Source: Actinomycetota bacterium
GTDB taxonomy: Bacteria; Actinomycetota; Geothermincolia; Fen-727; Anoxymicrobiaceae
Reading direction: 5' to 3'
Length of the DNA stretch: 64,000 bases
Assembly: GCA_018831265.1 (NCBI GenBank)
Contig: JAHJCO010000019.1
Span: 104,534 to 168,533 of the forward strand
The stretch's first letter is position 1. Each line of letters starts with the position of its first letter. The notes under the pieces are model-generated. The model had not been told where the DNA came from. It made no database searches and saw only the letters and a list, made by a program, of their open reading frames with translations. The position numbers and the translations under genes were made by a program. Of this stretch, positions 8,491 to 12,828 are shown piece after piece.

Positions 8491-11400
8491 TCATCTCCAG
8501 GCCTTGAGGGCGTCCCGCATCTCCATGCCCTTATCCAGCAGCAGCTCGCGCCTGGTCTCGAACAGGATGCCCCCGACGAGGACCAGCGCTCCGACCAGCA
8601 CCGCGTAGATGGACCAGTGGAGCTGGCTGGCAGGCGTCCAGAGCTTGACTATCCCGTCGATCACGATGAAGGTGAGCCCGGCGCCGAGGAACACCGTGCG
8701 CCGCTGCCAGAACGCCACCACCAGGGCGACCACGCTCTCGGTCAGAAGGATGCTCGTGTTCCAGACGTCGTTGCGGTTGAGGCTGGGTATGAGAGATGAC
8801 AGCGCCAGCGTGCAGAACCCCGCCAGGTGGAGCATCTGCACCACCAGCTTGCTCTTGCCGGCGCGCTCGGCCCAGTAACCCAGGGCTATGAGGTAGATAC
8901 CGGCGGGCAGGCAGTACAGGTGGGGCATGGACACCTCGCCGTTCACCAGTATCAGGACGTAGCCGAGGGAGAAGTGCGCGAAGGAGACGTGGCCCATGAA
9001 GCCGTAGCCCTTGATGAACCCGATCGCCGCGTAGATCGCCGCGGCGGTGAAGAACGCGCCCACCATCAGCATGCCGCCGTCGGGCGTGCCGCCCCGGGCG
9101 CCGCCCAGCACCACCAGCTCGGCGACGGTCCCCATGACGGTGAAGCCCGCCGCGAACTGGAGGAAGATATCGGACAGCGTGTCCCTGCGGCCGCCGAGCG
9201 CCCGGCCGATCCCCAGGTAGAGGAGCGCCGGTCCCATCAGGACCAGGCCGCCCAGCGCATCGGGCACCCGGTAGTCGCCGGTGATCATGATGTAGACGGT
9301 CTCGATCACCGAGATCGCGAGCGGCAGGTACGCCAGGCGATCGCGCCCCAGCAGCAGGGTGAGCCCGGCCGAGAGCCCCAGGGCCATGCTCAGGGTGATT
9401 ATAGCCTCCGTCCGGAACCCCATGGCCATGGAGTGGATCACGGCCGCCGCGAAGAGCCCGGCCGAGACCGCCCAGCCGACCGCCGCGAAGTCGTCGGAGT
9501 CCCTGGTGTAGTTGACGAAGGCGCCCCCCAGGACCAGTGCCCCGCCGCAGGCGAGCCAGTAGCCCGCGTTGGCCGGGTAAAGGTCGAGCACCCATCCCAG
9601 CACGATCCAGCCGGCCGCCGCGAAGACGTGCCCGGCGACGTTCGCGAAGATATCGTCGGCCAGCTCCGAGACCGCGATACAGAAGGCCGCCGTGACCGCG
9701 AGTGAGGCGCACTGCCAGAGCATCGCCGCGCGGGTGACCGCCCCCGCTTCCCTGCCCACGAAGCTCAGGAAAGACACCAGGGTCAGCGCCGCGTACCCGC
9801 CCATCGCGGAGTAGAACCACGCCTTCGCCCGGGTCTCGAAGCCGATGAGGAAGGCGGACATCGCGACGGCGCCGATGCAGATCACGCTCGCGTAGTACTG
9901 GTTCCAGGCAGTGGCCTGCAGGGAGCAGGCGACCCCGGCCAGCCCCACAGCCATCGAGCCGTAGCAAAGCTGCCGTGCCACCCAGCGGGGAGCCCTGCCG
10001 CGAAGGGAGACGAAGGCCACCGCGAGGCATGAGCCGAGTCCGGCCAGGGTGATCGCGACGGCCTGGTACTGGTGGCTGAGGGTCCAGGCGAGCCAGCCCG
10101 TGCCCACAGCCCCGTGGACGATGGCCGAAACAAGAGCGATCTCCGGCACCGCCTCCCGCCAGGTCCCCTCGTCCATCGCGTTGCTGACGGCAACGGCGCA
10201 GGCGGCCGATATCAGCGCCCAGGCGCCCATGTATATGCACACGCTGTAGGTGAAGCCGTGCGCCATGTGTGCCACCTGGTAGAAGAACCCGACCGCGGCG
10301 AACGCCCCGCCGGAAACCAGCATCGGTACAGAGTACTTCTCGCCGCGCCTCCAGCCCGCGAGTATCGCCCCCGCGACCAGCAGCGGACCGGCGACCAGGG
10401 TCATGTAGAGCATGTAGTTCATCTCGGCGCCGGTACCACGCAGGCCCATGGCCACCAGCTCGCGGACCAGCATCAGTGCGGCCACGAAGCCCGGGTAGAT
10501 GAACTCGCCCCGCTCCCATGTCACCGTTTCGGCCGCGGCCAGGACGGCCAGGGCGCCGAACGTTATCGCCACCGCCGCGGAAGTCCCGGAGTACAGGTAG
10601 ACGAACTGCGAGACGAAGGCAAACGCGGCCACCGCGGCGAAGCCCGCGAGCGGCGGGGTCGCAAGGTCGTCCCGGCCGGCTCGCCTCAGCACGTGCCCGG
10701 CGATCCCGAAGGCCACGGCCAGGGGCACAAGCAGCATGCCGTAGTTGACACCTCCGCCGCTGACGGCGTGGACCCACCCGGCGCGCGACACGGCGTGCGC
10801 CTGGACCAGCCCCGCCACGGCGGCAGTGACACAGGCACCGTACAGGGGCCCCGGCTTTCCGGTGCGCACCGTTGCCGCCACCAGGTAGACGGTCATGGCG
10901 ATTGCCGAGCCGACGGCACCAAGGTAGGCGTGGCGGTGGAGTGCGAGCGCGGGGATTATCCCGCCGGATATCACGGGCAGGTAGAAGATACCGGCCGCGA
11001 CGGTGGCGGCGCCCGCCACGACGAAGCCCGGGATGTAGGCGGTAAGGCTCCACTCGGTGTCGGCGAACCTCTCCAGGAGCGCGCCGATGATCAGCAGGGA
11101 GCCGGCGACCACGGTGGCCTCGAGCAGGCACCACAGGGGCACGCTCCCCTGCCAGTAGCCCATCCCGACCAGTGACGCGTACACCATCGCGGAGGATGCC
11201 AGGTAACCAAGGAACCTCTTACGCTCGATCAGCGCCGACACCCACAGCAGGGCCGAGGCTACGGCGGCGGTTATCATCGAGTTCAGGATCTCGGCGTCCG
11301 AGGCGGCCTTCCAGATACGCGGGATGTTGAATACAAGGTCCTTGCCCGCGACCGCCACCAGTATCCCCAGTATCGCTATGACCCCGGAGTAGATGAACGG

Positions 11401-12828
11401 CGTGCCGTCGTGGTCGCCGAAGACCTTCGAGTCGATGAAGCCCATCACGATCAGGACGCCCGCGGCTGTCGCCAGGGCCGGGGCGGCCAGGTACCAGTCG
11501 CTCCCGGGGACCCTGACCAGGAAGAACGAGGCCGCCAGGACCATTCCCGAGGAGACGTAGGCCAGCACCTTGTCCTCGTAGGCGTAGGAGCCTATCAGCA
11601 GCGCCGCCGCGGAGGATACCAGCAGTATCCCCGAGGTGCGCAACCCGGCACCGGTAAAGTAGCGGATGTCGCCCAGCGTGGTGAGCAGCGCCAGGACGAT
11701 CCCGGCGTTGCCGACGCCGAACAGCGTCTTCGCATACGCATCCAGCCCCGCGCGCCGCATGATGTAGCCGGCGGCGAAGTAACCCGCCGTGAGACCCACT
11801 ATCCACAGGCCCCAGAAATGGTTGCTCACGCCCGAGCCCCGCAGGATGAAGAACAGCAGGGCCAGGGGTGTGAGGACCAGGAAGGCGAACAGCGCCTGGT
11901 TGCGCGTACGGTAGAAGTTGACCGCGTAGACGGCGGCCGCGATTATCGCCCCGGCGATGCCGAGAAGGTTGGGATCGAACGCCACCCCCGCGATCCTGTA
12001 GTCTGAGAACAGGTAGACCACCAGCGGCACGAGGCTTGAGGCCAGCACGAACACAATGGTTGAGCCCAGCCTGATGCGCTTCGCGAGGTAGTGTCCCAGG
12101 ACGTAGAGCCCGCACGCGACCGCCAGCACGGTGGAAAACACGAAGTAGTCTCCGACCAGGCTCCACTTCCAGGTGACCAGCCCTATGACCCCCGCCATCA
12201 GGATGAAAGTCCCCACGAAGTACCACCAGCGCAGCAGCCCCTTTTCGACGAGCGTGTGCATCCAGCCGGACAGGTCCGGGCGCTCGCGGCGGGGGGGACG
12301 CGGCCTTCGCGGTGGAGGCGGGGGCGGGGCGGCGGCGTGCACCGCGGTGTCGCGCGCCTGCCGGCGGCCGCTCCTGCGCATCCGGGAGAGCTGCTCTATG
12401 TACTCCTGGATCCGGACGTCGCCGGGGGACAGGTACAGGGCGTACTTCGCCGCCTGCCGCGCCTCCCCGAACTCCCCGGCCGCGCTGAGAATGCGCGCCA
12501 TCAACATATGAAGCTCCGGGTTGGAGGGGTCCGCCTTCAGGGCGGGTTGGATCTCTTCGGCGGCGGCGCGGAGCCGACCCTCCTCGAGGAGCCGCGCCGA
12601 AGAGCCCATCCTGGCCGCGACCCAGCGCGACTTGACTGCCTGCCTCATCGCGTCGTAGGCGGCCAGCTCCTCCTCGACGCGGGCTCGCTCCTCACCCTGC
12701 GGGGCCTCCGCCAGCCGGGCGCACAGCTCGTGCTCGCGCCGCCCGTCGATCAGCTCGGCGCCGCAGCGGTCGCAGAAGCGGACCGCCGCCGCGTTACCGA
12801 ACCTCTTACCGCATATCATGCACTCCAT
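8491..12828 (-). CDS. Giant (1445 aa) polytopic membrane protein. N-terminal C4 zinc ribbon (CxxC...CxxC), TPR-like region and poly-Pro linker, then about 30 or more TM helices.
   Basis: MECMICGKRFGNAAAVRFCDRCGAEL. GGGAGGTG SD. Uninterrupted hydrophobic helices. The alternative-frame ORF 8531..11134 is a GC artefact. Confidence 0.75.
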   Translation of the reverse strand: MECMICGKRFGNAAAVRFCDRCGAELIDGRREHELCARLAEAPQGEERARVEEELAAYDAMRQAVKSRWVAARMGSSARLLEEGRLRAAAEEIQPALKADPSNPELHMLMARILSAAGEFGEARQAAKYALYLSPGDVRIQEYIEQLSRMRRSGRRQARDTAVHAAAPPPPPPRRPRPPRRERPDLSGWMHTLVEKGLLRWWYFVGTFILMAGVIGLVTWKWSLVGDYFVFSTVLAVACGLYVLGHYLAKRIRLGSTIVFVLASSLVPLVVYLFSDYRIAGVAFDPNLLGIAGAIIAAAVYAVNFYRTRNQALFAFLVLTPLALLFFILRGSGVSNHFWGLWIVGLTAGYFAAGYIMRRAGLDAYAKTLFGVGNAGIVLALLTTLGDIRYFTGAGLRTSGILLVSSAAALLIGSYAYEDKVLAYVSSGMVLAASFFLVRVPGSDWYLAAPALATAAGVLIVMGFIDSKVFGDHDGTPFIYSGVIAILGILVAVAGKDLVFNIPRIWKAASDAEILNSMITAAVASALLWVSALIERKRFLGYLASSAMVYASLVGMGYWQGSVPLWCLLEATVVAGSLLIIGALLERFADTEWSLTAYIPGFVVAGAATVAAGIFYLPVISGGIIPALALHRHAYLGAVGSAIAMTVYLVAATVRTGKPGPLYGACVTAAVAGLVQAHAVSRAGWVHAVSGGGVNYGMLLVPLAVAFGIAGHVLRRAGRDDLATPPLAGFAAVAAFAFVSQFVYLYSGTSAAVAITFGALAVLAAAETVTWERGEFIYPGFVAALMLVRELVAMGLRGTGAEMNYMLYMTLVAGPLLVAGAILAGWRRGEKYSVPMLVSGGAFAAVGFFYQVAHMAHGFTYSVCIYMGAWALISAACAVAVSNAMDEGTWREAVPEIALVSAIVHGAVGTGWLAWTLSHQYQAVAITLAGLGSCLAVAFVSLRGRAPRWVARQLCYGSMAVGLAGVACSLQATAWNQYYASVICIGAVAMSAFLIGFETRAKAWFYSAMGGYAALTLVSFLSFVGREAGAVTRAAMLWQCASLAVTAAFCIAVSELADDIFANVAGHVFAAAGWIVLGWVLDLYPANAGYWLACGGALVLGGAFVNYTRDSDDFAAVGWAVSAGLFAAAVIHSMAMGFRTEAIITLSMALGLSAGLTLLLGRDRLAYLPLAISVIETVYIMITGDYRVPDALGGLVLMGPALLYLGIGRALGGRRDTLSDIFLQFAAGFTVMGTVAELVVLGGARGGTPDGGMLMVGAFFTAAAIYAAIGFIKGYGFMGHVSFAHFSLGYVLILVNGEVSMPHLYCLPAGIYLIALGYWAERAGKSKLVVQMLHLAGFCTLALSSLIPSLNRNDVWNTSILLTESVVALVVAFWQRRTVFLGAGLTFIVIDGIVKLWTPASQLHWSIYAVLVGALVLVGGILFETRRELLLDKGMEMRDALKAWR

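Follow-up and report, generated by a model that had tools for sequence, protein, structure and literature searches.

Why does a gene for a giant membrane protein lie directly behind hgcB, at the end of a mercury-methylation cluster? The question arises in a 64,000-nucleotide stretch of actinomycetotal DNA (GenBank assembly GCA_018831265.1, contig JAHJCO010000019.1, positions 104,534 to 168,533; family Anoxymicrobiaceae), hereafter the window. A first-pass annotation, made from the letters of this stretch, had reported an open reading frame (ORF) for a 1445-aa polytopic protein about 250 bp downstream of hgcB on the same strand, and had suggested a functional link to hgcAB. The location is accurate; the link is argued against by comparative genomics. 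Judged by its gene neighborhoods, the giant gene has hgcCAB as a neighbor by position only, and the hgc genes appear to be no part of its system. We favor, with modest confidence, the reading that the gene is independent of mercury methylation and encodes a non-enzymatic membrane scaffold, a co-sensor or effector of a HisKA_7TM/LuxR two-component system (TCS).

The giant gene (BIG in our feature list) occupies 8491..12828 on the minus strand, stop codon included, with an ATG start and a GC content at third codon positions (GC3) of 0.91, typical for genes of the window. A Shine-Dalgarno sequence, GGGAGG, lies 6 nt 5' of the ATG (12835..12840, minus), and its GGAGG is kept in all orthologue loci. 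A word-indexed search of 5.8 billion protein clusters returned nine clusters: the protein itself, deposited from an Actinobacteria metagenome-assembled genome under the name 'tetratricopeptide repeat protein', and eight relatives. Four of the eight relatives are full-length (1490-1523 aa), with 46-61% identity at 100% coverage; these orthologues align with the giant protein from end to end and share the start M-[EK]-C-x-I-C. With such relatives, a fusion of frameshifted shorter genes, the artefact that the first-pass annotation had named as the way its single ORF could fail, is ruled out, and 8491..12828 is one intact gene for a single giant membrane protein. A scan with the PADLOC defence models gave no match.

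The hgcC-hgcA-hgcB cluster lies upstream of the giant gene (13082..14640, minus; hgcB 13082-13369, hgcA 13374-14417, hgcC 14380-14640), and all three products score above their NCBIfam equivalog cut-offs (NF040962, NF040863 and NF040864). A 253-nt spacer separates hgcB from the giant gene on the same strand. Synteny was checked from both directions and is absent elsewhere: the available flanks of the orthologues (L001-L006, L016-L018) and of the more distant relatives (L007-L012) contain neither hgcA nor hgcB, and the giant gene is found in none of the three other hgcAB loci examined (L013-L015). The closest HgcA in the databases, 95% identical, belongs to locus L013 (GCA_043807425.1), where genes for an S8 peptidase, a metallo-beta-lactamase (MBL) protein, a PadR regulator and a Fer4 protein precede hgcC, hgcA and hgcB, and where the order continues, as in the window, with a 168-aa gene, DUF6125, a helix-turn-helix (HTH) gene, acyl-CoA dehydrogenase, BPL_N and an acyltransferase. 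This neighborhood is colinear with the window at 91-95% nucleotide identity. By blastn, window positions 6640-8442 and 13082-14678 align with L013 at 94-95% identity, and nothing aligns between them, leaving a strain-specific segment of 4.64 kb (8443..13081), made up of the giant gene and its leader, without counterpart. L013 carries 952 nt in its place, with a 279-aa Lactamase_B (metallo-beta-lactamase-fold) gene that has no homologue in the window; in the next-closest hgcAB loci (HgcA 65% identical), a TetR gene follows hgcB. Since the flanks are conserved in L013 and the giant gene with its leader is not, the segment entered or was exchanged recently in this strain: its position after hgcB is a strain-specific, cassette-like replacement. 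By the criterion that the annotation itself had set, this lack of conserved adjacency argues against a functional link to hgcAB.

Some details of the hgc loci stand beside this result. The hgcC gene (AbrB/MazE-like, NF040962, 121 bits) overlaps the hgcA ORF, taken from its first start, by 38 nt, and it also precedes hgcA in L013, L014 and L015. One orthologue locus, L002, holds at its edge (1-53) an AbrB/MazE-like 77-aa gene, possibly hgcC-like, which is oriented away from the giant gene at a distance of about 10 kb; a further 3.6 kb of that contig, past the locus edge, lies outside the hgcAB search, and a loosely linked hgcAB could sit there.

The spacer itself is composite. The annotation had described only repeat-element insertions between the two genes; the repeat is there, and the word 'only' has to go, for a conserved upstream element shares the spacer with it. 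Immediately 3' of hgcB lies a long inverted repeat resembling repetitive extragenic palindromic (REP) elements (12967..13057, no strand assigned), with 19-nt arms (12967-12985 and 13039-13057), a nested hairpin and the core GGGGTC[AT]GACCCC. This core pattern is enriched in the window (five matches against 0.32 expected), and the same 13-nt stem pair recurs at 43524-43569, directly after the stop codon of an S8 peptidase gene ending at 43521. For the spacer RNA, the predicted folding energy is -108.8 kcal/mol (z = -4.0). A consensus scan of the spacer found neither a U-tract terminator nor a sigma-70 promoter, a scan that covers Actinomycetotal promoters and U-less terminators poorly, and Rfam gave no match in the spacer. 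The repeat after hgcB is likely a terminator-like or transcript-end hairpin that lacks a U-tract.

Closer to the giant gene, the spacer aligns with the regions upstream of the orthologues in L001, L002, L003, L005 and L006. At the 5' edge of this conserved region stands a short hairpin, CCCTCC-GGGG-AGGGGG (12946..12964, minus), whose stem is kept with altered bases in L003, L005 and L006 (alignment columns 40-60). It is followed by the conserved upstream element proper, CTAACCCC...AAATA...TATACCTCC...GCGGAATAGT (12885..12930, minus), in which TAGTAT resembles a -10 box. The conserved proximal stretch of about 110 nt thus comprises the short hairpin, CTAACCCC, AAATA, TATRCCTCC, GCGGAATAGT(T/A)T, GAGAATCAAG and the GGAGG ribosome-binding site, with a -10-like TAGTTT inside the GCGGAATAGT(T/A)T stretch. 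Apart from L003, each locus has exactly one copy of the composite pattern CTAACCC...CCTCC...GGAATAGT, placed immediately before the giant gene. L003, with the pattern at 4626-4671, 10036-10081 and 3486-3497, has it additionally in front of two small genes (encoding 106 aa and 278 aa) whose products have the TPR (tetratricopeptide repeat) domain in common with the giant protein, which suggests a small regulon. RNAalifold recovered from the element nothing beyond trivial CCUCC/GGAGG pairing (-1.8 kcal/mol), leaving a structured RNA leader unsupported; a promoter or operator is therefore the more likely reading. We infer that the element is likely a putative promoter/operator that travels with the giant gene: it is conserved along with the orthologues and always stands upstream of them, and the gene would therefore carry its own regulatory region.

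The soluble parts of the protein are confined to its N-terminus. A cytoplasmic C4 zinc ribbon (aa 1-27; 12748..12828, minus) is formed by C3, C6, C19 and C22 (CxxC-x12-CxxC), which are invariant in all six sequences possessing an N-terminus; the giant protein matches NF033497 weakly in this region, and its relatives match Pfam DZR or Zn_Ribbon_1. About two repeats of a cytoplasmic TPR domain follow (aa 79-142; 12403..12594, minus). Pfam TPR_19 matches aa 80-127 with E 8.9e-8 and 32.8 bits, above the gathering score of 25, and solved TPR proteins in the PDB match aa 79-142 with E down to 5.8e-8. A Pro/Arg-rich linker, AAAPPPPPPRRPRPPRRERPD (aa 165-185; 12274..12336, minus), is read from the sequence and differs in length among orthologues (gap-rich alignment columns 190-270). 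Zinc ribbon, TPR-like helices, linker and the absence of further soluble domains had all been called from the letters; each holds up, the last in Pfam and NCBIfam scans, which found no other soluble domain in the giant protein.

The remainder is a transmembrane (TM) array with short loops (aa 199-1422; 8563..12234, minus). The earlier count of about 30 or more TM helices was right in kind and too low in number: we found 44 hydrophobic peaks from residue 199 onward, spaced about 20-38 aa apart. The mean of Lys plus Arg is 47.4 in the even (N-terminus-side) loops, as against 13.9 in the odd loops; by this strong positive-inside bias, the giant protein is polytopic, with about 44 TM helices and both termini in the cytoplasm (N-in/C-in). 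The secondary structure (DSSP) of an AlphaFold 2 (AF2) model of aa 247-1445 comprises about 42 long helices; built from five sequences, with a mean predicted local distance difference test (pLDDT) of 42.7 and unreliable packing, the model was used for secondary structure only. The array is repetitive. Residues 690-773 align with 799-883 at an hhalign probability of 95.6% (E 1e-8), a second repeat pairs 418-473 with 536-592, and fragment-against-self comparisons of the giant protein and its relatives return offsets of 107-120 aa and multiples thereof; a 2487-aa relative matches itself at an offset of 114 aa (E 3e-24). It follows from these regular offsets that even-numbered TM units were duplicated in tandem as the array grew. 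Conservation across five full-length orthologues is bimodal, with 40-49% of positions invariant in aa 201-400, 47-51% in aa 1301-1445 and 19-30% between. Among the invariant polar residues within TM segments are E586, E775, E1176, E1364, D1391 and several His.

The conserved C-terminal end coincides with a module that has already been catalogued. NCBIfam NF047321 ('SCO7613 C-terminal domain-containing membrane protein') matches aa 1258-1428 at 47.4 bits (E 1.7e-12), above its curated cut-off of 45 bits, and the closest homologue, 61% identical, bears the same name at NCBI; this profile match assigns the giant protein to the NF047321 family. The SCO7613-type module spans aa ~1246-1445 (8494..9093, minus) and consists of the last seven or eight helices and a cytoplasmic amphipathic tail. 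It sits at the extreme C-terminus here and in all 78 relatives compared, ending within 0-2 residues of it in most of them. A 33-sequence alignment of the module brings out the motifs Y-x-x-P-x-G-x-Y (P1308, G1310, Y1312) and E-R-x-R-E (R1427), an intramembrane Glu (E1364) and an invariant penultimate Trp (W1444); in module numbering, conservation among these 33 diverse sequences is at least 90% at E135 (E1364 of the full protein), P79, G81 and Y83. AF2 models the last 216 aa with a pLDDT of 83.6 as a predicted helical-repeat (solenoid) array. No solved membrane fold resembling this model was found, and a sequence search of PDB chains with the giant protein gave no transporter match. What is new here is the giant zinc-ribbon–TPR–44-TM member; its family was already on record, without an established function, in agreement with the earlier description of the protein type as uncharacterised. 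The same annotation had asked whether the protein might be DUF2339-like. We rejected this homology: there is no Pfam PF10101 match at E<=0.01, and hhalign against the DUF2339 protein of locus L011 gives a probability of 0.15%; the family is NF047321.

Members of this family are scarce. An exhaustive HMMER profile search (aa 247-1445 against 1.84 billion representatives) returned 77 clusters at E<=1e-3 and six at E<=1e-30, most of these matches covering just the last ~200 profile positions, and a word-indexed search with the C-terminal profile gave four matches. Two loci were recovered from 185,579 species genomes and three from JGI metagenomes. Members range in length from about 200 to 2487 aa and in TM count from about 6 to about 80. 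The giants examined share one layout, a zinc ribbon and/or TPR followed by a long TM array and the terminal module, and neither Pfam nor NCBIfam detects an enzymatic or transporter domain in the giant protein or in 12 relatives. The family is thus very rare and found mainly in Geothermincolia-type Actinomycetota, with distant giants, the longest of 2487 aa, in Armatimonadota and unassigned metagenomes.

Four of these loci deserve a description of their own. The 2487-aa relative (L011 1465-14644) lies between two NTP_transf_3 genes and near DUF2339, DUF3999 and diacylglycerol-kinase-like genes, surroundings that represent a possible lipid or envelope context. A 1999-aa relative follows, on the same strand, two T2SSF (pilus platform) genes and a gene for a 193-aa double-zinc-ribbon protein (L012 271-2553). 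At a Candidatus Anoxymicrobiaceae locus (L006 3757-4681) and a near-identical metagenome locus (L018 3205-4129), all that follows the TCS is a remnant, truncated or frameshifted, that reaches residue ~379 and consists of a 176-aa zinc-ribbon–TPR ORF plus a few TM helices; the same ORF is present in these two independent assemblies and may be a pseudogene or a short form.

The neighbors that do travel with the giant gene are those of a TCS. Upstream of it in the orthologue loci, and on its strand, is a gene for a HisKA_7TM/HisKA_3 kinase of about 680 aa (64-70% identical between loci), accompanied by one for a 223-aa LuxR/GerE response regulator (74-80% identical). This applies to the orthologue loci with enough upstream sequence: L002, L003, L004 (where the kinase is partial), L005/L016, L006 and L018. 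The association extends to another phylum. In the Armatimonadota locus L007, a HisKA_7TM-PAS kinase gene directly precedes that of a 2100-aa relative, together with a divergent GerE regulator; its 7TM domain is homologous to that of the actinomycetotal kinases (25.8% identity across 198 aa, E 4e-9), and identity between the regulators is 36-41%. In a third lineage (L008), a TPR/HATPase_c protein is encoded directly downstream of the relative. By homology, then, the conserved neighbor of the orthologues and of one Armatimonadota relative is a HisKA_7TM kinase with its LuxR/GerE regulator. The HisKA_7TM domain is a sensor embedded in the membrane, for which no signal is known (PMC5847659).

Under the reading we favor, the giant gene would be transcribed independently of hgcCAB, the conserved upstream element being the likely site of control by the response regulator. 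A long palisade of TM hairpins would present a large lipid-facing surface, and the cytoplasmic zinc-ribbon–TPR head and the amphipathic C-terminal tail would engage partner proteins. In one version the protein would be an accessory through which the intramembrane-sensing kinase is informed of the state of bilayer or envelope; in a second version, it would be a regulated effector that reinforces or organizes the membrane. We propose a scaffold because the protein combines the lack of a catalytic or transporter signature with an expandable helix number, conserved ends, a solenoid module and a cytoplasmic interaction head; the accessory and effector versions are suggested by its genetic coupling to a NarL-type regulator and a kinase that senses within the membrane. 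Several observations weigh against this proposal. No homologue of the kinase or the regulator was found in the 64-kb window, making the partnership putative in this genome, and four more distant relatives (L009-L012) have no adjacent kinase. The promoter call was made by consensus resemblance only, and the sigma-70 scan found nothing at the upstream element. The conserved intramembrane polar residues (E1364, E1176, D1391 and several His) could equally mean ion or substrate binding, and for the palisade geometry we extrapolated from the last 216 aa, the larger AF2 model being the one with low pLDDT.

The rival that the locus itself brings to mind is a mercury-methylation accessory, co-transcribed with hgcCAB and serving Hg(II) uptake, methylmercury export or the anchoring of HgcA. 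The gene does stand on the hgc strand a mere 253 nt 3' of hgcB, across a spacer in which no canonical terminator or sigma-70 promoter was detected, and HgcA is itself a membrane-anchored protein. We nevertheless regard this role as very improbable: no other orthologue or relative has hgcA or hgcB in its available flanks, the closest hgcCAB locus is colinear without the giant gene, the next-closest loci have a TetR gene instead, and the giant gene has an upstream element of its own behind a strong hairpin that follows hgcB. A further candidate comes from the only paper on SCO7613, an 81.9-kDa protein whose deletion in S. coelicolor lowered polyhydroxyalkanoate (PHA) by 16-41%; its authors noted a 'lipase box-like' GASAG and proposed a PHA synthase role, though they judged the PHA effect probably indirect (PMC8313934). 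We give an enzyme of this kind next to no credence for the giant protein and have rejected it: Pfam and NCBIfam detect no alpha/beta-hydrolase or PhaC-like domain, and the region in question consists entirely of TM helices.

Two other rivals share more ground with the proposed scaffold. The protein could be a transporter or channel in which conserved intramembrane acidic and His residues form an ion or substrate pathway, the C-terminal module serves as the functional core and the repeats have a regulatory or oligomerisation role. Invariant polar residues in the TM helices would fit such a role, as would the near-invariance of E1364 and the P-x-G-x-Y motif in the 33 modules and the glycerol transporter role speculated for SCO7613 (PMC8313934). 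It is a distinctly unlikely reading, given that the sequence matches no transporter family in Pfam or NCBIfam and no PDB chain of a transporter, that structural comparison yields no transporter or channel fold above generic helical-repeat matches, and that a range from about 6 to about 80 TM helices within one family is atypical of transporters. The protein could instead be an envelope-stress effector and nothing more, a membrane stabilizer induced by the TCS and without a sensing role. HisKA_3/LuxR pairs such as LiaSR and DesKR typically drive membrane-directed effectors; the upstream element lies directly downstream of the response regulator gene in most loci and is repeated in L003 before the small TPR-membrane genes. 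The present data, however, fit the co-sensor version equally, and the TCS is not nearby in the window; we consider an effector-only role unlikely. The boldest version of the scaffold idea is an analogy, and a long shot: the family might constitute a hitherto unrecognised bacterial 'transmembrane solenoid' class, an expandable palisade of TM hairpins with about 6 to about 80 helices, that reports or shapes membrane state for the HisKA_7TM kinase through its zinc-ribbon–TPR head, an analogue of the Piezo blade or a membrane 'fence'.

Other genes of the window have looser ties to the giant gene. The two further zinc-ribbon membrane proteins listed by the first-pass annotation do exist (22810-23592 and 63212-64000, both minus, the latter gene running past the window end); each crosses the membrane once, by a TM helix that joins an N-terminal zinc ribbon and Pro-rich linker to an extracytoplasmic domain, and the zinc-ribbon/Pro-rich/TM layout is all that they have in common with the giant protein. 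The first of the two genes is flanked by a redox cluster (21428-24784, minus) encoding FMN_bind, CDGSH/Fer4_19 iron-sulfur and 367-aa Fer4 proteins. Two large S8 subtilases (18200-21277, minus; 40264-43521, plus) have a fervidolysin-like prodomain and a C-terminal DUF5719. Proteins with DUF5719 or a NosD beta-helix recur near the giant gene in L001, L002, L004 and L005; they more probably represent a surface-protein domain typical of the lineage than a specific partner.

Research on mercury methylation gains a useful negative result: conspicuous as it is, the gene beside hgcB owes its place to an accident of this strain and should be left off the list of hgc accessories. In terms of membrane biology, about 44 TM helices in one bacterial polypeptide mark an extreme; the array grew by hairpin duplication, and relatives may have close to double that number. 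The family joins conserved end modules to a cross-phylum genetic link with a kinase whose 7TM sensor domain is an orphan. Should this link be functional, it would offer a handle both on what HisKA_7TM kinases sense and on the purpose of giant TM arrays.

Comparison with known systems places the giant protein among several partial likenesses. DUF2339 and DUF2157 proteins resemble it in their long TM arrays with short loops and no assigned function; DUF2157 gives sub-threshold matches on the first helices of two relatives and none for the giant protein, and one relative is encoded near a DUF2339/DUF3999 pair, whereas the giant protein itself has no DUF2339 match. The Piezo blade, built of tandem 4-TM helical units, is comparable in its very many TM helices, its tandem even-numbered units repeating roughly every 110-120 aa (about 4 TM) and a possible lipid-facing surface; the giant protein has neither a sequence or fold match to Piezo nor pore-forming or cap domains, and the comparison is an analogy only. 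SCO7613 shares the terminal module of about 200 aa, above cut-off and at the extreme C-terminus, with further TM helices before it, but the giant protein is about twice its size and adds the zinc-ribbon–TPR head and about 36 further helices. LiaF with LiaSR and BceAB with BceRS are accessory membrane proteins of intramembrane-sensing two-component systems. Although the giant protein is far larger, matches no LiaF or BceB family in Pfam or NCBIfam and lacks the coupling in the window, it is like them a polytopic membrane protein gene-coupled, in its orthologue loci, to a kinase with a membrane-embedded sensor and to a NarL/LuxR-type regulator.

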